Positions 1 to 62,550 of a stretch of DNA of 64,000 nucleotides are shown piece by piece. The notes under the pieces are model-generated. The model was not told the origin of the DNA and did no database searches. It saw nothing but the letters and a program-made list of their open reading frames with translations. Source of the stretch: Bilabrum cf. latius (taxonomy: Eukaryota); NCBI GenBank assembly GCA_965178125.1, contig OZ237737.1, positions 930,001 to 994,000 of the forward strand, read 5' to 3'. Both the position numbers and the translations under genes were made by a program. Positions within the stretch are counted from its first letter, which is position 1; every line of letters starts with the position of its first letter.

Positions 1-1460
1 GACCGTTTGTGACAGCGTCAGCTGGAGGGCAGCCTCCGGTGCCCCACTTATTGCCGAGGTAAGAGCGCAGTCGGTTCTCATCGTTGAAGTTTGACGAGTT
101 CATGATCCCAAACTCCATGATCAATCCTTCGAAAGCATTGAAGCTCGCTCCGACCTGGAGTGGGTAGGAGCTGCCACTTGATAGCACGTTGGCTTTGTTT
201 GCAGCAGAAGTGCCGGTGGGTTGGTCGATGTAGTAATACCAGCTCAACGCATTGTCGACGCTGCCGTACTGGAGGCCGGACGTGCTGAAATCGATCTCAG
301 CGTAGATCCACACGCGACGCAACTGCGATATATCTTGTTGAGAGGATTAATACTTCAGAGTATTACTTGCAGCAGTGACTAGCGCATGCAACTGGGAGCG
401 GCTACTCACTCCAGACGAGTAGTCGGTAACCCTTGTGTACCCGATGTACGTCTTGTACAGAGCCGACGACGGGCTGTTTGGCAAGGACATGCCGCCGGTG
501 TAGCGGAAATTGGTTGTCTTCGAAGTCGACGCGACGAACGCGAATCGGCTGTTCGAGGAGGTGATGGACTGCATCATCTCCCAGTACGTGCGACGCTGCC
601 CAGAGGCGAATGGTTCACCCTTCCGGAGCATGGTGCCCCGGTTCACACTGTACCAAGAGCTGCCGACGATGTAGATCATGTGCCCCTGCGATTAAATAGG
701 TGACAAAAAAGGAGTTGAATCCCGTGTATCGCGCTAGTGCCGTCGCAGGCCACTTTCGCGACGTGTCGCAGCGAGGCGATGGTCGTCTTAAACTCACCCC
801 CGTGCCCATGTTCGCGAAATCGAGCTGGGCATCACTGGGTGCGGTCATGAAGTCACGTCCAGACCAGTCGAAGAACATACCGCTGCGTGGGGGAATCGAT
901 ACTGGAAGGGAACAAAAATACCGCGCTGCGGCGACTTATAAGCTCATTCTGACTACTCCTTGGGTGGTGCTCTCACGGTTGGCACATCAGCCTCCTAGTC
1001 ATAGTGTAGGGCTGGTTGGTTCTACTAGTCTGTGATTTGTCGTGATAAGGGATACGTTAAGGCAGGGAGGATGCACATACTTACCGGATACCACGGACAC
1101 TCGTTCGCGATCACAATTTGAGGCTACGCCGAAGCTCACCTACGTCAAAGTGCGACCCCTCCAGCTCTTCCAGGTCGATGGGTACGTCGTAGCCGTCTTA
1201 CTGAAGCTAGTAGCTGCGTATTCAAGGGCGGGAAGTTACCACAGGCATCAAATTATGCAGAAGCACAGAATGGCGCGTGCCACATGTCACAGCGCTTTGT
1301 GAGTCCTTCGGCAGCCTTCAGCGGCAGTCTCGATGAACCAGTGTTTGCAGTGGTACTCACTGTCCCAAAAATCGATCAGCTTGGAGCCAAGGGTCTGGTC
1401 TGGAACCATTTGAGCTGCAGCGCATGCTGCCACGATGCACGAGACAGCCACTGACAGCAT
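1..1460 (-). CDS. Gene A: 5' part (runs off the left edge) of a paralog of gene B, a secreted or membrane protein with a signal peptide; 5 introns; one in-frame TAG
   Basis: Predicted ATG at 1460 (MLSVAVSCIVAACAAAQMVP...DFWD). Introns at 1214..1360, 1030..1139, 883..976, 686..797 and 323..409 (GT..AG on the minus strand). The spliced product aligns exon by exon with gene B, e.g. YPSTWKSWRGRT, GSSWYSVNRGTM, YAEIDFSTSGLQYG and RLRSYLGNKWGTGGCPPA. TAG at 1140-1142. Confidence 0.85.
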
Positions 1461-2196
1461 TGCGTTGAATGTTGACCCACTCGGAAAAGCAGAGTCAATG
1501 CAATGGGGTTTGATACAGTCAACAAGTCAAACTTGCAAAATATGCACCAAATTCCAGACCTTGTGCGGATTTCTCCACAGTAAAAGTGCCAAACATCCGG
1601 ACAGCGATCATCCAAAACATTTTAACTCGTCGCGACGTGCACAATTCGGAGTCTTAAAATGCGCTAGTGGGGCTAGTGGTCGCAACTTTCTCAAGAATGT
1701 TTGGATTAAATGCATGGTATAAGCATTCAAAACATGAAAAATATATAGGCCAATACGATAAATGTGTAGTCGATTGCGCATTATGCGGCCATTCTCAAAA
1801 AAATCGCAATTTGGAGTACATCATGATCCTTCTCAAGTCTTGTTAGTGAGGCATGTACAATGTGTAATCTCACAGCTAGAGTACCGGCTGTTTGGCCCTC
1901 CAAAACAATATGACCATTACCTCCGCTTACACGCTCTCAAGTTTGACCTGCTGCTACTAGCGGATCTCGTCAAGCCGCCGCCCGCTGCCAGTCGCTAGCG
2001 GCGTAGCCGCTCACTGGCAGCTTGGCATAGGTTTCACGCCTCCTTTGTATCATTAAACAATTATCGCGGCAAGTGGACCATTTCAGAGCCGGCCTGATCC
2101 ACCACACTGCCCTTCCTTGTCGCGCTTTCTCCGAAGCGGCCAGTTTGCCTTTTAGAAAACAGTCCGTAATCAAGTGTCCTGAAAAGCCTGAATCAC

Positions 2197-2307
2197 GCCG
2201 GGGTCGTGCTGCTGCCCCCGCTGGTGGCCGCAGAGGTCCGGGCGGCATCCACCTGTTGCTGCTGCAGCCTCTCCTTGAGCTGCTACGCGGAGCTGTGCAG
2301 TCTGTTC
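2197..2307 (-). repeat. Isolated 111-bp copy of the gene C cytoplasmic-tail coding sequence (16895..17005)
   Basis: Same-orientation copy at an offset of 14698 bp with 7 mismatches in 111 nt by manual alignment. The flanks do not match gene C. Confidence 0.9.
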
Positions 2308-3177: not shown

Positions 3178-6100
3178 TCACTGGCCCCCCTTCTTGGCGG
3201 CCATGGGGTTCACCATGCCGCCGTCAGCAGTGGCCCCGCTGGTGGAGGTGGTCTGCATCTGGCCAAAGGCCTTGCGTCCCTCCCCACCGCGAGCACCGCC
3301 ACCGACGCGCCTGCCTCCGGCGCGGCCGCGGCGAGCACCTGCCGCGGCTGTCTCCAAGCTCGATCCGCGCCGTCCCTGCACGCCAGCGCGGCGCATCTGA
3401 CGGGCCAGCTCCTCGATGTGCTTGGACAGGTTCACGTAGTTGCTGCGGATCTGCTCCCACGATGCGCCGCTCGGCGGGTTGCGCATCTGCAGCACCACCT
3501 GGGCGCGCTCCCGGATCTCCTGGGCCTCCGCCTCGGTCACGCCGCGCCCATCCGCGTCGGGGATCTCCTCGATCACGGGCCCGTCCTCCGCGTCCTCCTT
3601 CTTGGCGGCGGCGTCCTTCTCGGCGTTCTCGGCCAGGCGCTTGAAGATCGGGTTGGCGGACATGTCGGCGTCCGCGGGCTCGCCCTCCTGCGCCTCGAGT
3701 GCATCGGCCACGAGCTTGCGCTTGGAGGAGCCCTTCTTGGAGTTCTTCATGTTGCGCTGCTTCACCAGCAGAGCCTGCGCGTTCTCGTCGGCGCAGCCGC
3801 AGCACACCATGATCTGCTCGGGCAGCGTCTAAAGCTCGTCCGGCCGCATCTTGCCGCGGCGCACCATCTCCTCCTGGTACATGTACGAGATCTCCGTCAC
3901 CAGCACGAAGATGAAGTAGAAGATGGAAGAGAAGATCAGCGTCAGCACCAGGCCAAGCAGAGTGTCCACCTGAGGCTGGAAGAAGTCGCAGTTGTTCTCG
4001 ATCTCGCACTGAGTCTGGATCGCGTTGAAGCAGATGCCGGACAGGTTGATCAGCAGAGCAGAGAACAGCAGGCCCGACTCCAGCGTGTTCCACGAGAACA
4101 TGCTCACGGCCACGGAGCCCATGGCCTGGGCCACGGGGTTCGAGTATCGCACGGACTGGTTCGGGCGCGACCAGTCGGTCTTCTGCCCGGTCTTCTGCAG
4201 GCGCTTCTCCACATCCTTCACGTTCTTCTGCAGCTTGGCCCAGATGCTGTGCTCGTCCTCCAGGGCCAGGATCATGGTATGGCGCAGAGTCTCCTCGCGG
4301 TCGGCGGGGGCCATGTACGGCTGGTGGTACACCTGCAGGGCGTACGCGCACAGCAGCACAAGCAGACTCACGGACAGCTGCAGCGACGAGTTGTTCGCCC
4401 ACACCAGCGACGTGATGGCGATCAGTGCCTTGCGGGCCAGGATCACCACGATCCAAGAGTTGAAGCCCATCGTGCCGGCGGCGTACTCGGGACGGAACGC
4501 GAAGTACGACCGCTCGATCGACCTGCGAAGATCGTACGCGCGGGGGTTGCTGATGCGGTCGTACCCCAGGCCCTTGGCGCGCAGCAGCTGGTCCTCCATG
4601 ATGCGCTCCCGGTTGCTCCACAGCACGTAGCCCAGGATGGCGGGGAAGCCGAACGTGTAGAACAGCATGAACACAATGGCGATAGGGAACACACGCATGT
4701 GCAGCCCCCCGGGCTCGTAGCACGGCTCTAGGTCACCCACCAACATGTACGTGTTCGGATCCGAGTCGTCCACCTTGATGCAGTTCAGCGCCTCCATCAG
4801 CGTGGCAGTCACGAACAGGTACAGGAAGTAGCACACGATGATGCCGCCAGAGATCAGCTTGTTCACATGCGAGAAAGTAGAGTGCTTGTCGCTGCGACCC
4901 AGCACCAGGTACTTGTACAGCGCGAAACTGGCGAAAGCAAGGAACAGCATGGCGCCAACGGCCAGCGGGAATGCGATGGTGAAGTAGAACTTCTGCTCCC
5001 ACCCGACGTTCGGGCTGATGCACTCGGGCACGGCAAGGGAGATGTTCAGGTTGAACGCAGACATGTACGTCAGCAGGTCGTCCAGCACAGGCGGGTACTT
5101 GATGCGGGCGTTGGCGAACAGAGACACCACCTGGAACCAGTCCACACCGATCGATAGGATGGCGATGTTGATGTTGGTCGAGTTCAGCCACAGACCCATG
5201 CCACCGGCGCAGGCAGCAGCGATGATGAACGCCACGATCACCACCCACGGGTTGTCGGGGCACTTGGCGCACACGCCGGCCTTCTTGTAGTAGCCTTCGG
5301 CGCACGCGGCGCACCTGAACGAAGGAGCCTTAGACTCGTAGCCCTCGGCGCACGTGTTGTCGCCCATGCAAGCCTCGGCGGGCACGCAAGGCACGACGCA
5401 CACACCACGAGCCACCTCATCGCCGCGCTGCCCGCCAGTCACGGGGCAGATGGACAGCTCATCAGGGGTCTTCAGGTCGTACCAGCCACGGCGAGACACC
5501 GGGTACGTGTGCGAGTCAGTCTCAGAGTCGTAGCCGGCGCACATGGCACCCACCATCTCGCCCTGACGGGTCACAGGGCACTGCAGGCACGTCTCGCCCA
5601 CACCACCGAAGTACCCAAAGTCGCAGCCCACGATCAGCTTGTTCGAGCTCTCGGCCGACAGCTCGCCCTCCAGCGAGCCAACGCGCACGCTCACAGCCTT
5701 GGGACCGGCGGTCAGCAGGTCGGTGCGAAGCGCGGGGCAGCGGATGGCATCCTCCCACGCCTCGGGCTGCCCGCGGCCTCCCTGGCCCTTCTCCACACGG
5801 GCCACCACGTCGGAGCAGTTCACGTGCATCGCCAGCGTGGCGTTCTCGGTCACCTGCAGACGCCTGCCCTCGGCTGCCTCGCCCTCAGGCGCGCCGATGT
5901 CGAACTCAAGGTCGTCTTGAGTGTACATGCTGGTCACGTTGATGGCCAGCTCCAGGTTCCAGCCGTCCTGCACGTATCGCACGTTCTGGAACGAGTCGTT
6001 CGCAGGCCTGCGCACAGACCGCTCGTCCTCGAAGCGGCCCAGATACCGTCCAAACACCACGATGTCCTCGGGCTCAGCAGCGGCTCCGATCTGGGCAGAG

Positions 6101-9100
6101 TTCGTGATATACATGTAGCCAGGATCCACACGGGTAGGCTCCGGGTCACGGTACTCGTACGTCACCATGGATGAGCCAGAGCTGGACGACGACAGGGGAG
6201 GTGCCTGCGACATGGGCACCACCAGAGACGGACTCAGGCGGAGAGGTGCAGCGCGCACCACCTCCACAGACACCTGCTTGCTGGCTCCCACACCAGGCGG
6301 CACAACCACACGCATGCTCGTATCAGTGCGCTCCTCCACGCCACGAGGCATACAGCTGCGCACCTCCTGGATCACCTCGTCCTCGGCAGCCCAGTGGGCG
6401 GGGATCAGCCCGTCCACCACGTCGCGGCGCACGTCCACACTCGTCGCAGACCACTCCATGCTGTCCGTGCGGCAGCCACCGCCGACAAGCACACGCACAT
6501 GGTCCATGGGCGCACGGTGCGCGGCACCCAGAGGCAGGCTGCGGGGCTGGGCCAGCTCCTGGAACACGTCCTCGGTCTCCGAGTTGGTCAGCTCGTCCAG
6601 CACGGTGTCGGGGCCGAAGCTGCGGCCCTCCAGTACCACGGTCGATCCGCGAGTATGTGCGGCGCTCATGCGAGTCAGTGCATCCTCGCCCACGTCCTCG
6701 CCAGTGGCCTCGCCCTAGGGCACGTAGTACGTCAGGCCGCTCAGCTGAGGAGGCGCGAACCGCAGAGGCACGGCGCGGGGCACCAAGGCAGGTGTCGTGT
6801 CTGGGTCGTTCCAGCCGGGGATGATCACACCCGAAGGAGTGAAGGTCGATGCCTGCGGCTCCAGGGAGGCCAGTGCGCCACCACGAGCGGCCAGCAGCAC
6901 CACACGGTATCCGATGCCCTCGGGGATGGTCATCTCCACGGTCGTGTGGCTCCACGTCACGGACTGGGGACTCGGGCTAGACGGGTCAGTGCTGTTCGTG
7001 AAGGCCTCGCCCTCGCCCATGTACGTCTCGGCACCATCGCACGTGGGGATGGGCCTGGCACCAGAGGTAGGCACCCAGCTTGGGGGAGGGTCGATGTGGC
7101 TCAGGAACGCGCACTGCACCTTGCCGGTCTCGCGGCCCTGCGAGTCGGCCTGGGCAAGCACCTGGCGGCCGAAGTTGCGCCCACGGATGCGCACCACAGC
7201 ACCTCCCGTGGGGGGCGCCTCCAGGAATCCGCCAGAGCTACTGAAAGACAGGGTCTGAGCAGACACGGTCAGGGAGTTGCTCGACACGGCGGGCAGCGAG
7301 CCATCGCTCATGGCAGACGTGATCACCTCCACAGACTGGATCACGGGCCGGGCATAGCTGAACGCACCCGTGTAGACGTTGGACTCCTGGCCTGCCACCA
7401 CCACGCGCACGTAGTAGTCGGCACCACCGCCCTCGGGCAGAGGCACGGCGATCAGAGACTCACCTGCGCCCTCAGTCGTGATGTCGCGCACCACGTACAT
7501 GCTGTCCACCTCCATCTCGCCGGCGGCATCGTTGCGCCCGATGTACACGCGCGCTGACTCGTCCACGGGGTACACCAGGGGGTGGTACTGGCCGAGACCA
7601 GACCCGCGGATCACGACCCACAGATCTGCCTTGACGCCATACCTGTCCAGAGCCTGGTAGTGCTGGTCATCCAGGTCGATGCCAGTGGTGGGCATGCGGT
7701 ATCCGTTCGTGAAGGGATTGCCCTGGCTGTCCTGGCCCACCTCCACATCGCGGGCTCCCAGAGATCCGAACATGGACTGCTCCACATCCGCGTCATCTTC
7801 CGTGGCCAGCACCACGCTCGAGATCATAGGCATCTCGTACTTGAAGCGCACAGGGTCAGAGTCGTGGCCCAGGCCGTGGTCCACCACCAGCACCAGCTCA
7901 TCGTATGCGCCCTGGCCGCGAGGAGCATCCACCGTGATGCGAGCCATGCCGGATGTGGCAGAGTCCATGGTGATGGTGGCATCGCAGTCGCTTGAGCTGA
8001 AGCCCACGAAGTTGTTCGTCATGGCAGCCTGGCTGCACGCCACCAGCGAGTACGAATCGCCGAATGTCACGGTGGCCTTCATGCCGAAGTTGTGGCCCTG
8101 AAGCACGATGGCTCCACCGGTCGACGGGAACGTGGCCGCGTTGGCAGCCGATGTACCGGCGAAGGCAGTACCATCCACCTCGATGGCGGTCACCACGGGC
8201 TCGGCGTAGTCGATGGTCACGGCGGGAGACAGCTGGGTGCCGGCATACACGCGCACGGACACATCGCGGCCCTGCCCTGCAGGCACACGTACCCAGAAGA
8301 AGCACAGGTCCTCCAGCTGAGGTGCCGCTGAGGTAGTTGCCTGGTAGTACGCCTCGCAGGCAGCGCGCACGAAGGTGGCAGCACCGCTGCCCTCGGCCAC
8401 GAAGCGAGACTGAGACTCGGCGCCAGGAGTCGTGTCGGGCTCGTACGTCACACCAGTGATGGAACCAGTGTAGATCGCCGGCTCGGGAGCAGTGATGGAG
8501 CTAGTACTGAGCTGGCGGCGGTTCAGCAGACGGCCATTGCACATCCGCTGGTCGTTGTAGTTGACCTCGTCACAGTCGTTGCCAAACAGCGCAAGCACGC
8601 CCTTCTCGTCCTGCGATGTGAGCGACCGGAACGGCAAGGCGAGGCCTAGCACGTGCCCCTCGCCCGTCGTGGGGTACCCGCCCGGGGGCTGGCCCACAAG
8701 GTCCGAGATGATGGGAGCCTCCTGAGAGACCACCACGTCCTTGGTCGTGTACGTGTGCTCGGTGGCGGGCACGGTGCCCTTCACCTCGTCCAGCTTGTTC
8801 GTCGTCTCCACCACAGCGCGCACCGTGAAGGTACCGGCGCGCACCCACAGCCTGATCATGTCATCGCGCCACGCGATCAGCTGGAACTCCCGCTGATCAG
8901 CGGGCAGCTGCGTCTGCTGCACGTGCGAGACCCAGCCAGAAGCGCTCACGTTGCCACCGGCAGTGTCCTCGGCGAAGTTGCCCTTGTAGAACATCAGCGT
9001 GCGGCCCTCGGCCACAGGGTTCCCGCCAGGCACAGGTTCCATATGATCCGGCCCGGGCTCCAGCGTGATCAGCCGGTACGGGGTCTCAGCACCAGTGGTA

Positions 9101-12100
9101 TCTTCATCTGCTTGTAGCTCGAACCAGTCCGACAGCCTCTGGCCGCGCAGCGTGACCTCCCAGATGTTGCGAGTGAAAGTGTTCGCTTGGGATGGCTGTC
9201 CACCGAAGGCACGGGTGGCCTGCAGCTTGAGCTCATCGTCGCCAGACACAGCCACGGTGGTCATCTCGGGGAAGTCCAGCTCCGGCTCATTGTAGTGGAA
9301 CTGCTTCAGGCTTTCCCAGTCAGACCGAGACTCCACCTCGGCGTTCGTAGCCACCATGCCGGTCGCAGCGTCCATGCCCACGAGGCCCAGGCCAAGCACG
9401 TGGCCCCGGCCGAACCCAGGAGGCACCACAACACGCACAGCGCCCACGTCCAGGGGCAGGCCCTGGCCCGACTGGTACCCAGCCACCTTCCCACCGACAT
9501 CGTACTGCTGCCACAGATTGTTCACAGTACTGCGGTCCAGGGTGTCCACGAACACGCAAGCGGCGGAATCGTTCACCAGCTGCTCGGCATGGATGGGCAC
9601 CAGCGAGCCCAGGTAGCTCCGCACGGCCTGCTCGTACTGCTCGCGGTCCTGAGTCTTGCCCTCATCGTCATCGGGGATGGAGTCATCATCCAGAGAGGCA
9701 GGGCGAGGGGGGAAGCTCGGGTCCCACAGGCCAACCACGGCGGAAGTGGGGTCGCTGGCCGGCGGCAAATGCCTGGCGAACATCACCAGGGTCTCCGAGT
9801 TCCAAGGCATGGGCTTGGGGTTGCCCACATTCGGGGTCACGTACAGCGGCGTGGGCAGGCTGAAGTCGAACGTACCGCGGGGGTCGTTGCCGCCATCACC
9901 GCTCGCCTCGCTCACCTGGTCGGCCACAGACACGCGGATCTGGAAGTCACGCCCGATGCCGGGGCCCAGCTGCACCATGATCTGCTCGTGGGAGATCACC
10001 GTGTAGTTCAGCGCGCTGTTCCACTCGCCAGTCGCGGTCTTGCCGTACTCCACCCACTGCACCATCGCACCGGACGACTGCTCGGGGTCGTACATCTCAC
10101 GGGTGGGGGGGCCCAAGTTCTGACCAGTCACCAGCACCCAGGTGCCACCAGCCGAATCAGCGTCCTCAACACGACGGCCCATGGGTGTGCCGGGCATCAT
10201 GATCTCGTTCACGGTCGGGGCCTTGTACGATGCCTGGGGCACGCGAGACCGCTCACCATTCACCACCACGATCCACTCAAGGGCGCGACCAGCGCCAGGC
10301 AGGGTCATGCACTCCAGCTGGTAGTGCGCCTGTGTCATCACGCAGTCGCGACGGGGGTCCAGCACCACCAGGCCAGAGCCATCACCCAGAGCGGGCGCAG
10401 GGGCCATGGTCAGGCCCTGGGCCAGCGACACGTTCACGCGACCCTCGTAGGTTGAGTTCATGCCTCCCGGGTCTGCCACCTGCGCGATGTAGTTCACCGT
10501 GTCAGGTACCACGGGACCGAAGTTGCGGCCATCGATCACCACCTTCTGGCTACCCGTGGTGTTGGCGCGCACAGCACCCTCGCCGGTCAGCCCAGTCACA
10601 GTGGGGAAACCGTACCGGGTGAAGCCACGGCTCCACAGAGCCACCTGGCCACCCACCTCCACGGTCCATGCATGCGGGCCGTTTGCGTCCATCCACTCAG
10701 GCAGAGCTGCCATCTGGCAGTCGATGATGTCATCGCTGCGCACCACACAGGTGGACGCCTCGATGGACTCAGTACCGGCAGTCGCCTTCAGCTGGTCGCC
10801 GGGGTAGTTGGGCCAGCGGTACACAGGGTCAGGGCCGTAGTACGCCGTCACGGGCAGCTCGGAGCTGGGGTTGCCGAAGTACTGGCCACGGATGCGCACC
10901 ACATCGCCACCGGCAGTGTTGCCCTGCTGAGGCGGGTTGATGAGCTGGTACACCTGAGGCGGCCTGTACGACAGCGACCTGGTCCGGTACACGATGTTGG
11001 TCGACGGCAGCGTGCTCTCCTCGTGGCTGCACTGCTCGTCCTGCAGGATGTCAGGCGCAAGCACCACGTTCGTGTTGTCGGTGATCGTGACAGAGAGGCC
11101 GTGCCGGGCGCCGGCACCGCGCGTGTATCCCTCGCACGTGATCTGGGTGGATGCCTGGGTCAGCTCGCAGCTCAGCAGCTCAAACTGCCTGGAGCAGTCG
11201 GGGCCGAAGTACACAAGCGGCCTGGTCTCAGCTCCAAGCACCTCCATGGGACCGAAGTTCTCGCCGGTGATGATGAACCGGTTCCAGATGCGCCTTGAAT
11301 CAGCATAGCTGGTGGCATCAGCATGTGCCTGCTCATGAGTGTCGCCACGGGCGATCTCCTGGTCGTACCTGGTCTGGTACTCGGCCTCCCACGACCACCC
11401 CTCCGGCTCCATGTTGTGGTTGTACGTGTACGAGCTCGTGATGCCAGAGCGCAGGCTGATCACGCGAGGAGGAGCGTACGTCACGGTCTGTAGCTCGGGG
11501 GCCTAAGCAAACTGCCCACCCACAGACACTCGGATCTGAAGGTCAGCACCGATGCCCTCAGGGGCACCCACAAGCAGAGAGCCATGGTCGGCGCTCTCGA
11601 TCGACGTTGACACGAACCGGTACTCGCTAGAGGTAGGGGTCACCCGGCCCACGTACACCATCACAGCCTGCGGGTCGCTGCCCAGGTCAGTGCCAGTGAT
11701 CACGAACTTGCTGTTCAGCTCATGCGAAGACCCAGAGCCCACGCCCTTGGTATTCAGCCCACCTGCATTGATGGCCACCTGGTCCATGGTCACGGCCGTG
11801 ATGTTGGGAGCCTGATAGCCAAACTCCATCCGCCCGATGGCAAAGCTGCGGATCTCCTCGCCATTCACCATCGCGTACACCACCCAGTTGCACAGACCAG
11901 TGCCCTCGGGTGCTGCGCAGTTCAGGGTGTTGTCGTCGGGGGCGGTGCAGCTGGTGGTCTCGTACCTGCGTCCGATCGCGTTCGTGCCCACCACACGGAA
12001 GCCAGTGGCCCGCGAGAAGCGAGATCCGGCGAAACGCAGGGTCTCGCCACCAGACGTGGTCAAGGCGGTGCCAGTCGGCATAGTCACGGACTCCACCAGC

Positions 12101-37176: not shown

Positions 37177-37346
37177 GCGCCTGTGTCCAAAGCTGCTCGG
37201 TATGCTGGCTCGCATTAGCACTATTGACTAGTCTATTATCATGCAACATGATCAGAACATGATGCCACGCCGGGGAACACTCAACCCAGATTTGGCGCTA
37301 CACTCCACTATGCTGCACATCGATTTTAAGACTCTGTTCGCTTTCA

Positions 37347-39987: not shown

Positions 39988-40283
39988 CAACAAGGGTGTC
40001 GACCAGATCCAAAGCAGATTTTCTCAATAGTAACGAGCAGCTTCACATTCCGTTGAGCTTTTCCTTTCACCGAGCTTTGTCGTTCTGTTTTGACGGTTTT
40101 TGGCGTAGACTTGTGAGATTCTGATATAAATAATTCAATGTATGGAATGCAGCCGAATGGTAGTGACTTTCTTGTTTTTGCGGGTACTTGGTCCCAGGTT
40201 GTGCTCATGCTTGTGTTACCGCTTCCATCGCAGCGTCACACAGATTTCACAGTCCAAATTAACGGCATTAAATAATTCACATA
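39988..40283. promoter_or_regulatory. Short head-to-head intergenic region, a putative bidirectional promoter (Kir / dynein heavy chain)
   Basis: Only 296 bp separate the predicted divergent ATGs. The region is AT-rich and includes tataaataa near 40125. Confidence 0.4.
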
Positions 40284-49200: not shown

Positions 49201-52200
49201 TGATCGACACTTTGCTCGTGGCTGCCATGGGCCCTCCGGTTGGAGGGCGCAACCCAATCTCGCCGAGGATAAAGCGACACTTCAACGCCTTCTGCTTCAC
49301 AGAGATCCCCACCAACACGCTCAAGCGTATCTTTAGCACCATCATCGACTGGTTCGCAGATGGCAACGATTTTAAGGATGCCGTCAGTCGCGTTGCAAAG
49401 CAGAGCGTTGTGAGCGCCACGCTGGACGTCTACTCCCAGGCACAGGAGTCGCTGCGTCCTACACCGGCGAAGTCGCACTACACTTTCAACCTGCGTGACT
49501 TTAGCAGGGTGGTGCAGGGCGTGCTGCTCGTGAAACCGGCCGATGTAGAGACGCCGCAGGCGTTCGCGAGGCTCTGGAGCCACGAGGTGATGCGCGTCTT
49601 CTACGATCGCCTCACCGACGAGAAGGATCGTGGCTGGCTCATCGACGAGCTTGGCTCTGCCCTCAAGAAGCACTTCAACGAAGACTGGAAGGAACTTTTC
49701 TCTGACCTACCTGAGCTCAAGTGGCGTGTGATTCAACGGGCCTCAAAGCCCAAGAAGTCGGAGGATGATGATGGCAAAAAAGAGCAGGGCGGTGGGGATG
49801 CTGCGGCAGGAGCAGCCAGCAAGGCAGCGTCAGAGGAGGACGAGAGCCCTCCAGAAGGTCTTGAAATGGGCCATGATGAAATGCGGCTCCTGTTCTGGGG
49901 CGACTTCCTTACTCCCGGTGCTACCAAGCGGAATTACCGTCAAGTGGGTAGTGCCGACGAGCTCATCGGTGCCGTAGAGGTATCACTGGAGGATTACAAC
50001 TCGCAGTCCAAGAATCCCATGGATCTTGTGCCGTTCCTTTTCTTCTTGGAGCACGTTAGTCGCATTGCCAGGGTGCTCAAGATGCCGGGCGGGCACTGCC
50101 TGCTTGTTGGCGTGGGTGGGTCTGGCAGACAATGCGCAACCCGCCTGGCCACGTTCATGGCAGGGTACAAACTCTTGACGATCGAGCTGTCCAAGTCGTA
50201 CGGCAACGAAGAATGGGCCGACGACATGAAGCGCATCATGAAGGAGTCGGGCACTGGGCCAAGTCCGTGCGTTCTGCTGTTCAACGACACTCAGATCAAG
50301 TGGTAGGGCATGGTGGAAGACATCAACAACGTCCTGAATAGCGGTGAGGTGCCCAACTTGTTTGCTGCTGACGAGCGAGCCGAGATCTACGAGGCAGTGC
50401 AGCCGCTCGCCAGGGCGGCTGGTCGAGGGAAGGACCTGCCCCCCGCAGAGCTCTGGGCGTACTTCATTGAGAGGGTCAAGGCAAACCTGCACATCGTGCT
50501 GGCCATGAGTCCCATTGGCGAGGCATTCAGGGACAGGCTGAGGAAGTTCCCGTCGCTGGTGAACTGCTGCACAATCGACTGGTTCACGTCGTGGCCTGCT
50601 GATGCTCTCGAGGCAGTGGCTGCGAAGCAGCTGTCGACCATTGGCACTGTTGATGAGGAACTGTCGCCAAGGCTGGCTCGCGTGTGCCAGCACTTCCACG
50701 AGTCGGCACGCATGCTGTCACAGAGGTATGCCGACGAGATGCGCCGATTCAATTACGTAACGCCCACTAGCTACTTGGAGTTACTGTCTCAGTTCAAGCG
50801 GTCCCTCACAGAGCAGCAGGAAGACCTCTACAGCGCCCGGCAGAGGTACGTTGTAGGCCTGCAGAAGCTCGAAGATGCGTCGCAGAGCGTGCAAAAGCTT
50901 CAACAGAAGCTGACAGACATGCAGCCTAAGCTGGTTAAGTCCCAAGAGGAGACAGCAGCCTTGATGAAAGAGATTGAGGAGAAGCTGCCCGGTGTGGAAG
51001 AAATGAGGGGCAAGGTCAAGGCGGAGGCGGACATTGCCAACCAAGAGGCTGAGGCGGTCAACAAGGTTAAGAAGGAGTGCGAGGACGACCTCGCTGAAGC
51101 CATGCCTGCTCTCAACTCCGCACTGGCTGCCCTGGATACCATCAAGGAGTCGGACATCAAGTTCATCCGGTCGCTCGGTTCCCCGCCAAAGGTGATCAAG
51201 ACCGTTATGGCAGCTGTGCTTGTCATGCTGGGTGAGAAGCCCGACAAGATCAAGGACCCGGACAACCCCAGCAAGAAGATCGAGGACTACTGGGGGCCTG
51301 CCAAGAAGGTGCTTGGCGAGGTCAAGGTTCTGCTCGAGAACCTCAAAGGATACGACCGGGACAATATTGATCCCAAGCGAATCGCGAAGGTGAGGAAGGA
51401 GTTCACCTCTGACGAGGAGTTCACGGTGGAGCGAGCCAAGCAGGCTTCGTCGGCTGCAGCAGGCATGTGCGCGTGGGTGAAAGCTATGGACGTGTATGAG
51501 CGTGTAGCCAAGGTCGTTGCACCCAAGAAGGCGGCTCTCAAAGAGGCCGAAACGGAGCTAGAGGGCAAGATGGCACAGCTGCGGGAGAAGGAGGGCGTCC
51601 TCAAGAAGGTCGAGGACGACCTGGGTGACCTGCAATCCAAGCTTGCCGCTGCGCAGGCCAAGCTCAAGCAGCTAGAGGAAGATAAGGAGGACTGTGCCAA
51701 CCAACTAATTCGAGCAGAGCAGCTGATTGGTGGACTGGGTGGCGAGAAGGCTCGCTGGACCACTCGCGCCGCTGATCTGAAGGCCCGGTACGATGCTCTC
51801 ACAGGTGACGTCCTCCTCGGAGCTGGCATGATCAGCTACCTCGGTGCTTTCACCAGCGAGTTCCGCGACGAGTGCGTACAGGACTGGATCGCGTCTTGCA
51901 TCGAAGAGAAGGTACCGTCTGCCGCCCTTGCGCAAGCACAGGCAGGCGACGGGAGTGCTGGTCGGGCAGCTGCGGCCAGCGGTGCCGGCGCAGATGAACC
52001 CGAAGGTGGAGGTGCAGCTGCTGCTGCGTCAGGCGTCAAATACTCTCTGGCAGCCACACTCGGCGATGCAATCAAGATCAGGCAATGGCGCATTGATGGC
52101 CTTCCGACGGATTCTTTCAGCACCGATAATGGCGTGATTGTTGACAATGCAAGGCGTTGGCCGCTGATGATCGACCCTCAGGGTTAGGCCAACAAGTGGA

Positions 52201-55200
52201 TCAAGAACATGCAGAAGGATGCCAACTTGGCCGTGCTGAAGCAGACCGATCCCAACTTCCTTCGATCGATGGAGAACGCGGTCCAGTTCGGGCAGCCAGT
52301 GCTCCTAGAGAACGTCGGCGAGGAGCTGGACCCGTCGCTCGAGCCGATCCTGCTCAAGAACCTTTTCAAGCAGGGCGCTGCATGGTGCCTGCGAATCGGA
52401 GACTCGACCGTGGAGTACGACGATAAGTTCAAGCTGTACATCACCACGAAGCTGCGAAACCCGCACTATCTTCCAGAGGTCAGCACGAAGGTCACCCTCC
52501 TCAACTTCATGATCACGCCTGCCGGCCTGCAGGACCAGCTGCTCGGAGTGGTTGTTGCTGAAGAGCGGCCCGATCTTGAGCAAGCCAAGTCTAAGCTGCT
52601 GCTGCAAAGCGCGGAGAACCAACGCGTGCTGGCAGAGCTGGAGGATAAGATCCTCCACGTGCTCAGCTCCAGCAAGGGCAACATCCTCACGGATGAGACG
52701 GCGGTGAAGGTGTTGAACGAGAGCAAGGCTTTGTCCAATGAGATCACGGAGAAGCAGAAGGCCGCCGAAGCCACGGAGAAAGAGATCGACGAGACCCGGG
52801 CGGGATACACCCCCGTGGCGGCTCACGCGTCCCGGCTATTCTTTGTGACCGCAGATATGGGCAACATCGATCCCATGTACCAATACTCGATGGGGTGGTT
52901 CCGAGGACTCTTTGTGGGTAGCATCCGCAACAGCAAGAAGAGCGACAACTTGAAGGCTCGCATTGCCTCCTTGAACGACCATTTCACGTACTCTCTGTTC
53001 AAGAACGTGTGCAGGTCACTCTTTGAGAAGGACAAGCTGCTCTTCTCCTTCCTGCTGTGCATCAAGATCATGATGGGACGCGGTGAGGTGGACGGTGGGG
53101 AATGGCTGTTCCTTCTTACAGGCGGTGTTGCCATGGACAACCCACACACGAATCCAGCGAGTGAGTGGCTAAGTGAGAAGAGCTGGGGCGAAATTTGCCG
53201 CCTTTCTGGGCTCCCGGCCTTTAAGGGGCTGCGGGAGGATGTCGAGGGTAACATCGGCGGCTGGAAGCGGCTGTATGATGACAAGGCGCCTCACCGGGCG
53301 GATCTTCCCGGTGAATTCGGGCAACTTGGCAGGCTGACTAGGATGCAGCGCCTACTCGTGCTGCGCTGCTTCAGATCGGACAAGATCATGCTGGGCGTGT
53401 AGGACTTTGTGGGTGCGCAGCTCGGCGAGCAGTACCTAAAGCCCCCTCCCTTCGATCTTAAGGGCTGCCACGAGGACTCCGCCCCAGGGCAGCCGCTTGT
53501 GTTCGTGCTCAGCCCGGGATCCGACCCCATGGCGGCACTCATGTCGTTCGCCGATTCGATCAAGGCAAATGTGCAGCAGATTTCGCTCGGACAGGGGCAG
53601 GGCAAGTTTGCCGAGGAGATGATCGCAGAGGGCCGCAAGACCGGCTCGTGGGTCGTCTTGCAGAACTGCCACCTCGCTACAAGCTGGATGGCATCACTGG
53701 AGCGAATCTGCGAGCAGCTTGAAAACGCGGCAGCCGGCAAAGGTGATGGTGATGGTGAGGACGGGGACGAGGAGCCCCTGCACCGGAACTTCCGGCTGTG
53801 GCTTACGTCGTACCCGACCAAGGACTTCCCGGTGAGCGTGCTGCAGAACGGCATCAAGATGACGAACGAGCCTCCCAAGGGCCTGCGCAATAATCTGGAG
53901 CGGTCCTACTTGTCGGACCCTATTGTGGATCCCAAGTTTTTCACGGGCGTGTCCAACAGAGAGAGGTTCCGCCGCATGCTGTTCGGACTGTGCTTCTTCC
54001 ACGCGATGGTGCAGGAGCGCAGGCAGTTCGGGCCGCTGGGATGGAACATACCGTACGAATTCAACGAATCAGACCTCAGGATCAGCGTGCGCCAGCTGGC
54101 CATCTTTGCCGACGACAAGAATTACTCGGCAGACCCCGCGGACGAGAGCGTCGCGATCGAAGATGCTCTTCCGTACGACACGCTGAGGTACCTCACCGGA
54201 GAATGCAACTACGGCGGGAGGGTGACGGACGACAAGGACCGCAGGTGCCTGCTGTCCATCCTGCGCATGTTCTACTGCGGCGACATCCACGAGCCTGACA
54301 AGAGCTTGTCGCCGTCAGGGAACTGGAAGACTCCGCCAGATGACGTGCGGGAGCACGCAGACTACCTCAAGTTCATCCAGGGCTTGCCAGTCGTATCGGC
54401 TCCGGAGGTGTTTGGACTGCATTCCAATGCCACGATCACCAAGGACTTGAACGAGACCAGCAGCCTGTTCACGTCTATTCTGCTGACCGAGCGAGGCGGC
54501 GGCGGTGGTGGATCTAAGGGCAGTGGCAAGAGCAAGGAGGACACCATCGGTGATGTGGCCTCTGATGTTTTGTCGAAGATTCGTGACATTTATGACCTGG
54601 AGGCGATCGGTGGCTAGTACCCGACCGATCCGAAGCAGTCCATGAACACTGTGCTGGTGCAAGAGCTGGCGAGGTTCAACGTGCTGATCAAGGTCGTGAA
54701 GGATTCCTTGCGCGACGTGGTCAAGGCCCTGCAGGGACTCGTTGTTATGAGCACTGCCCTGGAGCAGGTGGCTGACGATCTCTTCTTCGGCAGGGTGCCG
54801 TCCATGTGGCTCGACAGGTCGTACCCATCGCTGAAGCCGCTCGGCTCCTACGTTGGCGATCTGGTGCAGAGGCTGGAATTCTTCGACAACTGGGTAAAGC
54901 ATGGCGTGCCAGTGCATTACTGGATGCCTGGGTTCTTCTTTACCCAGGGCTTCCTGACTGGGGCCCTGCAGAACTACGCCCGCAAGTACACCGTGCCGAT
55001 CGACCAGGTAACATTCGAAGTCGAATGCACCCGGTTACGTGAGAGCGACATCAAGGAGGCCCCTGAGGACGGCATCTATGTGTGGGGTCTCTACTTCGAT
55101 GGCTGCAGGTGGGACAGCACTGCGATGCGACTCGCCGAGTCCGAGCCTAAGTAGCTCTTCGCTCCGGCACCTGTCATGTGGCTCAAGCCTACGAAGGTGG

Positions 55201-55382
55201 ACGAGATGCGGAAGTTCAACAGCTACAATGCGCCTGTATACAAGACAACTGAGCGGCGGGGCATGCTAAGTACGACTGGGCACTCGACGAACTTCGTGAT
55301 GATGATGAAGCTTGCCTGCGCGGAGTCTCCTGACCATTGGATCCGGAGGGGCGTTGCACTGTTGCTTGCCTTAGATGATTGA
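40284..55382 (+). CDS. Axonemal dynein heavy chain, inner-arm type (DNAH3/DNAH7/DNAH12-like group), ~5032 aa, apparently intronless, at least 23 in-frame TAG
   Basis: All ORF pieces from 40284 to the TGA at 55380-55382 are in one frame. AAA motifs [81 protein letters not shown] and WPLMIDPQG; stalk coiled coil; C-terminus GHSTNFV...[15 protein letters not shown]. TAGs at 41499, 41820, 43131, 43782, 44250, 44304, 44310, 44319, 44703, 44886, 45567, 45720, 47214, 47448, 47838, 48297, 48993, 48999, 50304, 52185, 53400, 54615 and 55152. Confidence 0.96.
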
Positions 55383-56133: not shown

Positions 56134-59100
56134 ATGAAGGCAATATGCTGTGAGTCTAGTCCTGTCATCAACATTGGAACATGTTCATGGAAGAAGATAA
56201 TAGCCCCTTGGTGGCATCATTCGTATCGAATTTTCTAAATCCAAATTGCAGCTTACATGCTCTTAGCCACGGCCTGCCTGGTCATGACACCATTCGCAAT
56301 GGCAAACGGATGCGAGAGCAAGCCGTGCCTGAACGGTGGCACGTGCAGGCCCGACGGCGACACCGGCTTCACATGCACGTGCGCTGCCGGACACACCGGC
56401 GACACATGTGACGAGACCGACTCATCCGGTGGCGGCAGCTCCACCCAGACCGGATGCGAGAGCAAGCCGTGCCTGAACGGCGGCACGTGCAGGCCCGACG
56501 GCGACACCGGCTTCACATGCACGTGCGCTGCCGGATACACCGGCGACACATGTGACGAGACCGACTCATCCGGTGGCGGCGGCTCCACCCAGACCGGATG
56601 CGAGAGCAAGCCGTGCCTGAACGGCGGCACGTGCAGGCCCGACGGCGACACCGGCTTCACATGCACGTGCGCTGCCGGATACACCGGCGACATATGTGAC
56701 GAGACCGACTCATCCGGTGGCGGCGGCTCCACCCAGACCGGATGCGAGAGCAAGCCGTGCCTGAACGGCGGCACGTGCAGGCCCGACGGCGACACCGGCT
56801 TCACATGCACGTGCGCTGCCGGATACACCGGCGACACATGTGACGAGACCGACTCATCCGGTGGCGGCGGCTCCACCCAGACCGGATGCGAGAGCAAGCC
56901 GTGCCTGAACGGCGGCACGTGCAGGCCCGACGGCGACACCGGCTTCACATGCACGTGCGCTGCCGGATACACCGGCGACACATGTGACGAGACCGACTCA
57001 TCCGGTGGCGGCGGCTCCACCCAGACCGGATGCGAGAGCAAGCCGTGCCTGAACGGCGGCACGTGCAGGCCCGACGGCGACACCGGCTTCACATGCACGT
57101 GCGCTGCCGGATACACCGGCGACATATGTGACGAGACCGACTCATCCGGTGGCGGCGGCTCCACCCAGACCGGATGCGAGAGCAAGCCGTGCCTGAACGG
57201 CGGCACGTGCAGGCCCGACGGCGACACCGGCTTCACATGCACGTGCGCTGCCGGATACACCGGCGACACATGTGACGAGACCGACTCATCCGGTGGCGGC
57301 GGCTCCACCCAGACCGGATGCGAGAGCAAGCCGTGCCTGAACGGCGGCACGTGCAGGCCCGACGGCGACACCGGCTTCACATGCACGTGCGCTGCCGGAT
57401 ACACCGGCGACACATGTGACGAGACCGACTCATCCGGTGGCGGCGGCTCCACCCAGACCGGATGCGAGAGCAAGCCGTGCCTGAACGGTGGCACGTGCAG
57501 GCCCGACGGCGACACCGGCTTCACATGCACGTGCGCTGCCGGATACACCGGCGACACATGTGACGAGACCGACTCATCCGGTGGCGGCGGCTCCACCCAG
57601 ACCGGATGCGAGAGCAAGCCGTGCCTGAACGGCGGCACGTGCAGGCCCGACGGCGACACCGGCTTCACATGCACGTGCGCTGCCGGATACACCGGCGACA
57701 CATGTGACGAGACCGACTCATCCGGTGACGGCGGCTCCACCCAGACCGGATGCGAGAGCAAGCCGTGCCTGAACGGCGGCACGTGCAGGCCCGACGGCGA
57801 CACCGGCTTCACATGCACGTGCGCTGCCGGATACACCGGCGACACATGTGACGAGACCGACTCATCCGGTGGCGGCGGCTCCACCCAGACCGGATGCGAG
57901 AGCAAGCCGTGCCTGAACGGCGGCACGTGCAGGCCCGACGGCGACACCGGCTTCACATGCACGTGCGCTGCCGGATACACCGGCGACACATGTGACGAGA
58001 CCGACTCATCCGGTGGCGGCGGCTCCACCCAGACCGGATGCGAGAGCAAGCCGTGCCTGAACGGCGGCACGTGCAGGCCCGACGGCGACACCGGCTTCAG
58101 TCCCGACGGCAACACCGGCTTCACATGCGTGTGCGCTGCCGGATACACCGGCGACACGTGTGAAGAGCATAGCCAAGATGGTGGCCAACCAAGGGACTGC
58201 ACCGAACTTGATTGCTTGAATGGTCGCTGTGTCCGCAGCATCCAGACGCCCGGAACGGTATAGTGCCAGTGCAATGCAGGCTGGGGAATCGATGAGAAAG
58301 GTTCTTGCACCGTTGAGGCCAAGGCGCCATGCAGCCCCAATCCATGCAAGAACAGAGGCACGTGCACCTCGCAAGATGACAAGTTTGCGTGCGACTGCAT
58401 GGATGGCTACTCTGGTGAGACGTGTGCCGTCGTGGATGACAGGACTCCCTGCGCGCCCATTGACTGCAAGGAGGGGATTTGCATGCTGAACGATGACAAT
58501 AAACCGCAGTGCATCTGCTCGACTGGGTGGCTGCAGGCTACGGACGAGTTGATTGCGCCTTGCAACGAGCCGCGAGGCAATAACAATGGCTCCGGTGGTG
58601 ATGGCGATGATGCCAAGCCAACGTGCAATGATGGCACAATGAACGGTCGCGAATCTGGAATCGACTGCGGGTACGCCATGTCAGATGACACGAATTCTTG
58701 CGAACTCTGCACTGAGGGGCTCGGTTGCTTCTCAAGCAAGAACTGTGCCGAGGGTCTCGTGTGCGAAGCAGACCGCCATGTGTGCGTGCCCAAAGAGCAA
58801 GAAGCTGGCACGTATGTGACTGTCTAGGGCCTTGAGATTCAAGGTCTGACCATTGCAATGTTCAACCGTATCAAGGACACTTTCGTCGCAGCCACTACGG
58901 AGGCCACGGGGGCTGCTAGTCTAGTTGTCACCGAAGTGGCTTTGGAAATGCCTGCCAAGTTGCCTTGCAACGGGTCAGATGTATAGGGCACATCTGGAAC
59001 TGCTTCCGATACCGCTACCAGTGGAACATCCTCAAGCTCAGGCACCAGAGATGCACGGCGCCGAGTGCAGGACAGGCCAGAAAGGCCCGGAGACTCCACC

Positions 59101-62100
59101 GATCCTGCCGATGGCCCTGGTGACAACAAAGGAGGAGACTCCACCGATCCTGCCGATGGCCCTGGTGACAACAAGGGAGGAGACTCCACCGATCCTGCCG
59201 ATGGCCCTGGTGACAACAAAGGAGGAGACTCCACCGATCCTGCCGATGGCCCTGGTGACAACAAAGGAGGAGACTCCACCGATCCTGCCGATGGCCCTGG
59301 TGACAACACAGGAGGAGACTCCACCGATCCTGCCGATGGCCCTGGTGACAACACAGGAGGAGACTCCACCGATCCTGCTGATGGCCCTGGTGGCGACAAG
59401 GGAGGAGACTCCACCGATCCTGCCGATGGCCCTGGTGACGACAAGGGAGGAGACTCCACCGATCCTGCCGATGGCCCTGGTGACAACAAAGGAGGAGACT
59501 CCACCGATCCTGCCGATGGCCCTGGTGACAACAAAGGAGGAGACTCCACCGATCCTGCCGATGGCCCTGGTGACAACAAGGGAGGAGACTCCACCGATCC
59601 TGCCGATGGCCCTGGTGACGACAAGGGAGGAGACTCCACCGATCCTGCCGATGGCCCTGGTGACAACACAGGAGGAGACTCCACCGATCCTGCCGATGGC
59701 CCTGGTGACAACAAAGGAGGAGACTCCACCGATCCTGCTGATGGCCCTGGTGACGACAAGGGAGGAGACTCCACCGATCCTGCCGATGGCCCTGGTGACG
59801 ACAAAGGAGGAGACTCCACCGATCCTGCTGATGGCCCTGGTGACGACAAGGGAGGAGACTCCACCGATCCTGCTGATGGCCCTGGTGACGACAAGGGAGG
59901 AGACTCCACCGATCCTGCCGATGGCCCTGGTGACAACAAAGGAGGAGACTCGACGGATAGTGAACCAGCAACGAAGCTGTACCTCAGTATCAGGCTGGAG
60001 TTCAGCATGGCCGAGAACCCACGCAAGATCCAAGAAATTGTGGCTTCGTACGTGCGGGGAGCGCCAATCCAGGGTGGCAACGGACTGTACGACGATATCA
60101 TCGCTGCATTCCCTGCTTTTGCTCGTTTCCTGCATGTTGACTCAAGGAGAGCGTGCATTCAGCACATGCAGCTCGATACATCGCAGACGGCAGCCGAAGC
60201 TGTCTCCGTCTGCCAACTTGCTCGGTGTGGGCGTGGCCAGTGCCTGCCAGATTCAAGGAACAGGCAGGGGTTCGTGTGCGCTTGCGATGATGGCTGGGGC
60301 ACGGACATGCGCGGCACCTGCTCCATAGACATGGGCAAGTGCTCCACAAGCCCTTGCAAGAACGGGCGGTGCGCTCTGGATGCTTCCTCAGCATCTGGTT
60401 TCAAGTGCACCTGCAAGGAAGGCTGGACCAAGGACAAGAGCGGTGCCTGCACTGTGCCTGTTCGTGTCAGCCCGTGCCGGTCGCAGCCGTGCGGCATGGG
60501 CAGCTGCGTGGACAATGAGACGTCAGCAGCTGGATTCCAGTGCGAGTGCATGCGAGGCTGGGGGCAGGACAAGGCTGGAATATGCAAGATCGAAGAAGAC
60601 TACTGTGCCACTGAGCCATGCGGGTTCGGCAACTGCAAGTTGGACCGGAAGAACAGCAAAGGCTTCACCTGCTCGTGCGAGGAGGGCTATCGACTGGACG
60701 CGGACGGGTCATGCACCATTAAGGTTTCAATGGAGCAGCCGTCCAAGTGCGACGCAAACCCCAGGCTGTGCAAGGCTGGCTTCTGCGAGGACACGCCAGA
60801 CGCTCCGAACGGATTCACGTGTTCGTGCTTCGATGGATACGGCACAGATGAGGACGGAATCTGCAGCATCAAGGACTACTGCTTCGGTGATCCGTGCATG
60901 AACGGGGAGTGCATTGCATCGAGGGGCGCCAAGCGGGGATTCAAGTGCAGCTGCAAGGAAGGATACACTCTGGACCGTGTCGGTGTGTGCAGTGTAGAGG
61001 TCAAGGACTACTGCGAGGCCGAGCCTTGCGGGTAGCACGGCACGTGCAAGTCATTCCAATCTGACGGTGGAGGCTACGTGTGCTTCTGCCAAGACAACTG
61101 GCTGAAGGACTACCTGGGAAGCTGTACGGTACCCAAGCCGGAGCGTCCGTGCGAGACAGCCACGTGCGGCAACGGTCAGTGCATCGAGGACGAGCGAGCT
61201 CGGAAGGGCTACTACTGCAAGTGCGAGAAGGGCTGGGTCAGGAACACCGTGTCGGGCGAGTGCTCAGAGGTGAAAGACGCGTGCTGGCCCAATCCGTGCC
61301 GCAATGGCGGCATGTGCAGCAGCTAGGCAGGGGCCAATAACTTTACCTGCACGTGCCCCTCTGATCGCTACAGCGGTACTCGCTGCCAGAAGGTGTAGGT
61401 CCGCGGCCCTTGCGCGAGCAAGCCATGCGGGCGAGGTGTTTGTAAGGCAACGAGTGACCAGGAGTACCAGTGCTCGTGTGACAGCGGCATCATGAAAGAC
61501 GAGTCTGGCCATTGCACACAAGAGAGGCCAGCAGAGGCCCAGCCCACGTGCGACGATGGCGTCAAGAACGGCAACGAGACTGGAATCGACTGCGGTATCG
61601 ATGATGAGGACAGCTCGTGTGCCCTGTGCACAGAGGGTCTGCAGTGTCGATCCAGCGATAATTGTGCGGGAGAGCTAATTTGCTCGTAGGACTCCCGGAC
61701 TTGCACTGTTGCGGTAAAGCCCGCCGGTGCCTACGTCGAGGTTGATGCTCTCGAGATCAAAGGCGTGTCAGCCAGGCAGTTCATGCAGACGCTCAAGATC
61801 CCCTTTATGGAACAGATGAAGAACCGCACGGGGGCTGCAGAGGTCATCATTGAGAAGGTCTCAGAGGGCGATGAGAACGGCGCTGATGGTGCAGTGCGTC
61901 GGCTGCGCAGCCAGACCCGGGGGCTCTTCGGCTGGGTCAGGCAGCTGCAGGCATCCAACGACGCAGAAATCGCGGTGGACTCAAGCTTGCGCTTCCGCGC
62001 TGACGCAAACACCTTTGAGGCAGAAGAAGCTGTCGCTGGGTACGTCACGGGGGCTCCAGAGTCTGGTGGAAACGGCCTGCTGGAAGACTTGCAGGCAGCT

Positions 62101-62550
62101 GCACCCGCTCTAGCCGAACGCCTCACGGTAGACACATCGACCATCTCGTTCGAGACTGAAACGCTCACGGAGGCGGAGGTGGTCACGACGTACGTTGAGA
62201 CTGATAGTACCCCGGTAGTGGCTCCCTCACCCTCTTCGCAGCCAGCCCCTGCAGCATCGGCCAGCCCGTCGCCTGCCTCGGCTGGGGAACCGGTTGACCT
62301 GGACGAAGACAATGAGGACGAGGATGGTGAGGACGGGATCCCCATGGTTGCTATCATTGCAGCAGCCGTCGGAGTGGTTGTTCTCGTCGGCGTTTCAGTG
62401 ACGGCGTATTGCTGTTGCTGCGCGGCGAAGGCGGCCAACAAGACTGGGGTTCAACGGGGAGGGAAGGTTACCATCATCCACACCAATGGAAGCTTCAATG
62501 CAGCTAACCCTATGTCGAAGGCCGTCCAAGGCCGGCCTGTGCTCGCTTGA
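56134..62550 (+). CDS. Type I single-pass membrane protein (~2104 aa) with many EGF-like domains, two Cys-rich plus SEA-like modules and a Gly/Asp-rich repeat; 1 intron; 7 in-frame TAG
   Basis: Intron 56150..56251 (gtgagt..ttgcag) gives the signal peptide MKAICSYMLLATACLVMTPFAMA. One frame continues to TGA at 62548-62550 with TAGs at 58261, 58825, 58984, 61033, 61324, 61396 and 61687. EGF pattern CxxxPCxNGGTC...CxCxxGYTGxxC; TM segment IPMVAIIAAAVGVVVLVGVSVTAY followed by CCCC. Confidence 0.9.
56308..58162 (+). repeat. Coding tandem repeat with a 144-bp unit (one EGF domain plus Gly/Ser linker): 12 full copies and a 13th variant
   Basis: Unit starts at 56308, 56452 and so on to 58036 (12 x 144). 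Copies differ at only a few positions. The last copy has an internal 21-bp duplication (PDGDTGFS-PDGNTGF). Confidence 0.97.
59092..59946 (+). repeat. Coding minisatellite with a 45-bp unit (DSTDPADGPGD[N/D][K/T]GG), 19 copies
   Basis: The period of 45 bp runs from 59092 to 59946. Variation is limited to a few positions and there are no unique spacers. Confidence 0.97.

Follow-up and report, generated by a model that had tools for sequence, protein, structure and literature searches.

Introduction

Changes in the nuclear genetic code are rare, and codes that split the meanings of UAG and UAA are rarer still: passages of PMC11687900 and PMC5304391 name just a handful of ciliate lineages besides Iotanema, Scotinosphaera and one rhizarian. 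Code 6, in which UAA and UAG both encode Gln, is attributed in part of PMC11687900 to many ciliates, Hexamita, Streblomastix, ulvophycean green algae and Amoeboaphelidium. In this study we analysed a 64,000-nucleotide stretch deposited as Bilabrum cf. latius (contig OZ237737.1, positions 930,001 to 994,000 of the forward strand; hereafter the window, to which all positions below refer), in which seven genes, including one for an axonemal dynein heavy chain, contain TAG in frame. Judging from its sequence, the window is very probably nuclear DNA of a stramenopile related to Cafeteria, in which UAG would encode Gln and UAA and UGA would still be terminators.

Iotanema spirale (Fornicata) is like the window in that UAG alone has become a Gln codon, UAA and UGA are stops, and UAG and UAA are decoupled (as stated in passages of PMC5304391). 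It belongs to the supergroup Metamonada, whereas the window belongs to Stramenopiles; its stops are mostly UAA according to the same passages, whereas TGA ends six of the eight frames in the window; and the window is GC-rich, unlike Iotanema. The same codon has been given to the same amino acid in Protocruzia tuzeti and two phyllopharyngean lineages (part of PMC11687900). These UAG-only ciliates share with the window an apparently independent and fairly recent origin of the change within a clade, but they belong to Alveolata, where code changes are common, whereas the window groups with Cafeteria. Code 6 also reads UAG as Gln and differs in its treatment of UAA: in the window, TAA occurs at none of 17,101 codons and ends two of the eight frames. 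NCBI table 15 ('Blepharisma macronuclear', TAG = Q) has the same assignments as the window and can be used to annotate this organism, although it is a label and not a related lineage; its attribution to Blepharisma was an error, according to a passage of PMC5304391.

The closest named relative, Cafeteria roenbergensis (Bicosoecida), possesses a homologous giant cadherin/TIG protein of 6,349-6,361 amino acids. This protein and the Cafeteria dynein (4,857 amino acids) are both deposited uninterrupted, and there is no sign of TAG recoding in Cafeteria as judged from these protein products. At the columns of the 23 TAG codons of the window dynein, Cafeteria has Gln in eight.

Results

TAG is the only stop triplet within the large frames

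The initial annotation of the window had counted about 69 in-frame stop codons, TAG in every case checked, in seven genes without frameshifts. Our count agreed: 69 in-frame TAG codons are distributed over seven genes on both strands, one of them being contributed by the frame just upstream of gene E (39661-40023; gene labels as in Table 1), and every frame is continuous without any frameshift repair. The positions singled out by that annotation on the forward strand (52185, 48993, 48999, 47448, 35722 and 35962) and on the reverse strand (22291, 31480 and 32945) are each a TAG in the frame that had been proposed. The five largest frames, comprising 17,101 codons, contain 63 TAG, no TAA and no TGA; the two off-frames of the same DNA contain 1,065 stop triplets, including 112 TAG and 848 TGA. 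Under the standard code, the longest frame in the window is 1,595 amino acids. When TAG is read as a sense codon, frames of 5,270, 5,036, 4,033 and 2,103 amino acids appear. As controls, reading TAA as sense leaves the longest frame at 1,595 amino acids, and reading TGA as sense gives a maximum of 1,622, a slight lengthening that is a composition effect expected of GC-rich DNA. Because the giant frames open only with TAG as sense and the in-frame stops are only TAG, chance, pseudogene decay and frameshifts are excluded as their origin. Some of the 69 TAG codons may fall outside true coding sequences, for example the first two of gene A, which either precede the first Met or lie close to it, and those inside a low-complexity insert of gene E. 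A reverse-strand frame with three TAG codons and no family match (33847-34743) was left out of the count.

TAA and TGA terminate the frames

The eight frame ends observed are six TGA and two TAA, with no TAG. Third-position GC drops past seven of these stops, from 0.63-0.82 to 0.44-0.58; downstream of the stop of gene G it stays at 0.63. If TAA were also read as Gln, the CAA:CAG ratio (85:527) would predict about 10 in-frame TAA codons, and none was observed. In-frame TAA is also absent from the related contig L001 described below. TAA and TGA are terminators, not sense codons.

Dynein columns at TAG codons point to Gln

To assign a residue to TAG, we replaced TAG by X in the dynein, aligned it with 45 homologues (all of P0004-P0039 and nine more distant ones, of 120 listed) and scored the 19 of its 23 TAG columns that had at least 80% occupancy. 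Gln was the sole residue with a positive summed log-odds score over these columns (+11.2 bits), the next being Glu (-23.7 bits). The mean frequency of Gln was 0.278 in TAG columns, against 0.347 in CAG columns and 0.351 in CAA columns; among the four other codons compared (GAG, AAG, CGC and GCC) it did not exceed 0.057. The sites at 52185, 48999 and 47448, which had been proposed to occupy conserved Gln positions, do so in 44, 45 and 44 of the 45 homologues, respectively. The same proposal failed for 48993, where 26 of the 45 homologues have Met and 13 have Gln.

TAG exchanges with CAG and CAA in a related lineage

We scanned metagenome contigs of the Joint Genome Institute (JGI) with a TAG-free piece of the dynein and found two contigs, L001 and L002, with 91% amino-acid identity. 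L001 (8,051 bp) aligns to 43392-51082 of the window at 75% DNA identity. L002 (2,889 bp) comes from a different metagenome record and shows one mismatch to L001 in 2,889 bases. The dynein frame of L001 (2,683 codons) contains 23 TAG, no TAA and no TGA, and that of L002 (963 codons) contains 12 TAG and likewise neither of the other two.

Over 2,648 aligned codons, the window and L001 have 84.7% amino-acid identity. At the 36 positions where either has TAG, the other has TAG (3 positions), CAG (23), CAA (4) or another codon (6), and a Gln-type codon (TAG, CAG or CAA) is therefore present in both at 30 of the 36. Counted from both sides, the partner is of the Gln type for 33/39 TAG (85%), 127/153 CAG (83%) and 32/43 CAA (74%), and the partner of ten other codons is CAG or CAA at no more than 7% of sites. 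Given that TAG swaps with CAG and CAA between the two lineages as freely as CAG does with CAA, TAG behaves as a third synonymous Gln codon. In the five large frames of the window, 63 of the 675 Gln-type codons are TAG (9.3%), and in L001 the share is 18%. Taken together with the dynein columns, these values agree with the earlier description of TAG as a regular minority Gln codon.

Other dynein-bearing contigs were not close relatives. L003 encodes a dynein paralogue (41% identical) in an ordinary open frame and was set aside. Among contigs of GTDB, eight dynein-bearing loci were found; the best reached 59% identity over 93 residues and the rest 51% or less, and none represented a close relative. 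In the GTDB species set, these eight contigs (L004-L011) are filed under bacterial metagenome-assembled genomes; the dynein heavy chains that they encode are 27-59% identical to the query. Two of the contigs belong to a single Verrucomicrobiaceae genome, and another is OZ219972.1 ('Stappiaceae bacterium ... chromosome: 21', 492,763 bp). They look like eukaryotic DNA within prokaryote-labelled genomes.

The window groups with Cafeteria

A stramenopile host had been proposed from the gene content, with a dynein phylogeny suggested for its placement. The best dynein match is Cafeteria roenbergensis (P0004, 65% identity), and in a maximum-likelihood tree of dynein built from 46 sequences and 3,705 columns, the sister group of the window consists of Cafeteria roenbergensis and a metagenome protein, P0005 (support 1.0). 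Three further proteins of the tree fall outside the clade formed by the window, Cafeteria and P0005. The best named match of gene B is also from Cafeteria. On this sequence evidence, which upholds the proposal, the organism is a Cafeteria-related, bicosoecid-like heterotrophic stramenopile. For the dyneins of Cafeteria and P0005 and for the three outgroup proteins, the deposited products run uninterrupted over 4,106-4,857 amino acids, which suggests, without proving it, that the code change is confined to the lineage of the window and L001.

The same DNA occurs in independent assemblies

Contigs of runs X1 (study P1) and X5 (study P2) span the entire dynein gene (40272-55382) with no differences from the window, and X7 (study P3) shows none in eight pieces among the matches listed. 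The window itself may derive from one of these runs, and we therefore counted at least two independent assemblies; the identical contigs of X5-X7 were used solely in this capacity. Among the runs listed, none was on record as RNA. Letter-identical window DNA (X1-X7) is found under three different organism labels in three studies. In addition, X8, labelled 'algae metagenome', represents a relative with 92-95% DNA identity. The flagellate may travel unnoticed in cultures of other organisms.

Discussion

A possible mechanism

The simplest way to keep UAA as a stop when UAG is reassigned is stated in part of PMC5304391: a tRNA with CUA, which alone among the anticodons reads UAG and leaves UAA unread. 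In the window's organism, UAG would accordingly be decoded by a dedicated tRNA-Gln(CUA), whose anticodon is one base away from the normal CUG and pairs with UAG, not with UAA. In addition, eRF1 would have lost efficient recognition of UAG and retained that of UAA and UGA. Stop-reassigned eukaryotes usually carry changes in the GTS, NIKS and YxCxxxF motifs of the eRF1 N domain, and in Iotanema the GTS motif is altered by T32G (passages of PMC5304391). The change would date from the interval between the divergence from Cafeteria and the later divergence of the window and L001 lineages.

Evidence that does not fit the assignment of UAG to Gln

Several observations weigh against this assignment or against the placement of the organism. 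ARAGORN found no tRNA gene in the window, and Rfam at the gathering threshold found no RNA gene in the window (rRNA included) or in L001 and L002 (tRNA included); nor does the window contain an eRF1 gene. The taxon is derived from one gene tree and best matches. Within the dynein, Gln is the commonest residue in just 5 of the 19 TAG columns, compared with 39 of 110 for CAG, and two TAG codons fall on Glu columns: residue 2523, with Glu in 45/45 homologues, and residue 3345, with Glu in 34/45. Both sites are CAG in L001, and Cafeteria has Gln at the latter; the lineage thus simply has Gln in these odd columns. At residue 2523, a conserved part of the dynein motor has changed from Glu to Gln specifically in this lineage. 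In the comparison with L001, TAG is paired with GAC, GAG, CAT, GGC, AAG or CTT at 6 of the 36 positions.

The other genes provide less support than the dynein. In V-ATPase subunit C, the TAG codons covered by alignments (35722 and 35962) align with Ser in both solved homologues, contrary to the conserved Gln that the initial annotation had placed there. The signal from gene B is weak: over 17 TAG columns the mean frequency of Gln is 0.129, compared with 0.167 for CAG columns, and Ala (0.15) ranks above it. The five homologues available for gene B are 27-32% identical and too distant for a clear column signal. Its residue 3375 (window 22291), which had been read as Gln from other copies of the IPT repeat, nevertheless falls in a column with Gln in 5/5 homologues. 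The repeats themselves lend little to that reading, as Gln occupies the site in 3 of 10 VGG-x copies within the protein. Likewise, the reading of the cadherin site at 31480 as Gln finds weak support in the repeats, with Gln in 3 of 9 TG-x-I copies.

Alternative explanations

In an ambiguous code, UAG would be both a Gln codon and a context-dependent terminator, for example near the 3' end, as in Condylostoma and karyorelict ciliates. Such codes exist (described in parts of PMC4967479 and 10.1101/2022.04.12.488043), and, while none of the frames ends in TAG, eight frame ends are too small a sample to argue against occasional TAG terminators, so that a minority of TAG stops may have escaped us. 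However, TAG is found as late as residue 4961 of the 5,036 in the dynein, 75 codons ahead of its stop, with homology extending further. We regard an ambiguous code as unlikely.

Near-cognate readthrough, in which an ordinary tRNA-Gln(CUG) would read UAG with a weakened eRF1 and no dedicated tRNA, appears quite unlikely. Although near-cognate tRNA-Gln can read UAG under the standard code (part of PMC13192750), the single essential dynein frame of 5,036 codons has 23 UAG, including four where Gln is nearly invariant, and would require near-complete decoding, which argues against mere leaky readthrough. The share of TAG among Gln-type codons, 9% in the window and twice that in L001, and the statement that CUA is the one anticodon for UAG without UAA argue in the same direction.

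Editing of mRNA would preserve the standard code by turning UAG into CAG, through a U-to-C change, before translation. It would equally yield Gln and produce the TAG/CAG pattern between species. The editing would have to hit the exact first base of 69 codons in seven genes and of 23 more in L001, whose TAG sites mostly differ from those of the window (3 of 36 shared), and we know of no nuclear U-to-C editing system of this kind in stramenopiles. This makes editing very improbable. Artefact or decay has a negligible probability and is already contradicted by the alignment columns, the assemblies, L001 and the stop counts: pseudogenes would accumulate TGA and TAA too, which make up 0 of the 63 in-frame stops; a systematic C-to-T consensus error is opposed by the identical DNA in assemblies of three studies and by the TAG pattern in the relative's two metagenome contigs; and another residue such as Glu, to which the one invariant Glu column would lend support, scores far below Gln over the dynein columns and meets CAG at that very site in L001.

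Novelty and significance

The assignment of UAG alone to Gln is a code type already known from Iotanema and some ciliates, and, as far as the passages cited above extend, the stramenopile lineage is new to the published list of UAG-only organisms. The earlier statement that no such nuclear code was known in stramenopiles is in line with our survey: no stramenopile nuclear code change was found in full-text searches of the literature, subscription journals and supplementary files being outside its coverage, so that a prior description is possible. Term look-ups in PMC12152300, PMC13768787, PMC11412368, 10.64898/2026.06.25.734631 and PMC13524828, which include a 2024 stramenopile review and a 2026 preprint on the Halocafeteria genome, retrieved no passage on such a change. 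The sole stramenopile item in the retrieved passages was a citation to the mitochondrial codes of Labyrinthulea. We lean slightly towards the view that Stramenopiles have here their first nuclear code change, with UAG alone reassigned to Gln independently of other groups. At least two Cafeteria-related lineages (75% DNA identity) would share it; the genome would be GC-rich and poor in introns, and the organism is present in several culture-derived and environmental data sets.

If this is true, a major supergroup with no such code on record would gain an independent origin, and the organism would offer a growable system outside ciliates for studying how eRF1 and tRNA-Gln(CUA) separate UAG from UAA. 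It would also matter for annotation, as gene callers using the standard code would fragment the genes, and proteins would be missed or mis-annotated. The protein collection contained no near-identical fragment of the window dynein (best 65% identity), which fits such fragmentation. Given that the same DNA is found under three organism names, surveys and culture assemblies may carry the lineage unrecognised.

Other features of the window

The genes, whose identities were assigned with Pfam, are summarized in Table 1 together with the dynein TAG sites discussed above.

Table 1. Features of the window, with in-frame TAG codons and frame ends (strand: + forward, - reverse)
Feature	Position	Strand	Length	In-frame TAG	End	Remarks
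Giant membrane protein A	3178-15279	-	4,033 codons	7	TGA	IPT/TIG domains; weak DUF7630 match
Giant membrane protein B	16603-32415	-	5,270 codons, stop to stop	20	TAA	15 cadherin domains, IPT/TIG, weak DUF7630 match (Pfam); C-terminal multi-pass region
Cys-rich repeat protein G	32396-33196	-		2	TGA	Weak Ephrin_rec_like match
Frame without Pfam match	33847-34743	-	298 amino acids	3		Perhaps not a gene
V-ATPase subunit C, first exon frame	35542-36093	+		3		TAG at 35722, 35962, 36046
V-ATPase subunit C, second exon frame	36316-37176	+		0	TGA	
E, inward-rectifier-type K+ channel, C-terminal part	37347-39326	-		6	TAA	TAA followed directly by TGA
Frame upstream of E	39661-40023	-		1		
Axonemal inner-arm-type dynein heavy chain	40272-55382	+	5,036 codons	23	TGA	One frame, no intron
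TAG, dynein residue 2393	47448-47450	+				Column Gln in 44/45 homologues
TAG, dynein residue 2523	47838-47840	+				Column Glu in 45/45 homologues, Cafeteria included; CAG in L001
TAG, dynein residue 2910	48999-49001	+				Column Gln in 45/45 homologues; TAG also in L001
TAG, dynein residue 3972	52185-52187	+				Column Gln in 44/45 homologues
TAG, dynein residue 4377	53400-53402	+				Column Gln in 41/45 homologues
EGF-repeat surface protein D	56239-62550	+	2,103 codons	7	TGA	
Frame without Pfam match	62934-63998	-	354 amino acids	0	TGA	Runs off the window

The GC content of the window is 55-65%, and third-position GC is 0.69-0.82 in the five large frames. In the frame that runs off the window, third-position GC is 0.72, a value like that of coding sequence. 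No intron interrupts the 15-kb dynein gene or any of the other giant genes. The two V-ATPase subunit C frames are separated by at least about 220 bp (36094-36315), which resembles an intron.

A and B are tandem genes of one strand. Both have IPT/TIG domains and the weak DUF7630 match, and their C-terminal multi-pass regions are similar; A looks paralogous to B. Both represent giant cadherin-type surface proteins in a unicellular stramenopile, the 15 cadherin domains being those of B. Protein D contains runs of near-identical repeats: a unit of about 44 amino acids that includes an EGF domain is present in about 12 copies, and a 15-amino-acid unit (GGDSTDPADGPGDNK-like) in about 19. The repeats are so alike as to suggest recent expansion or homogenisation.

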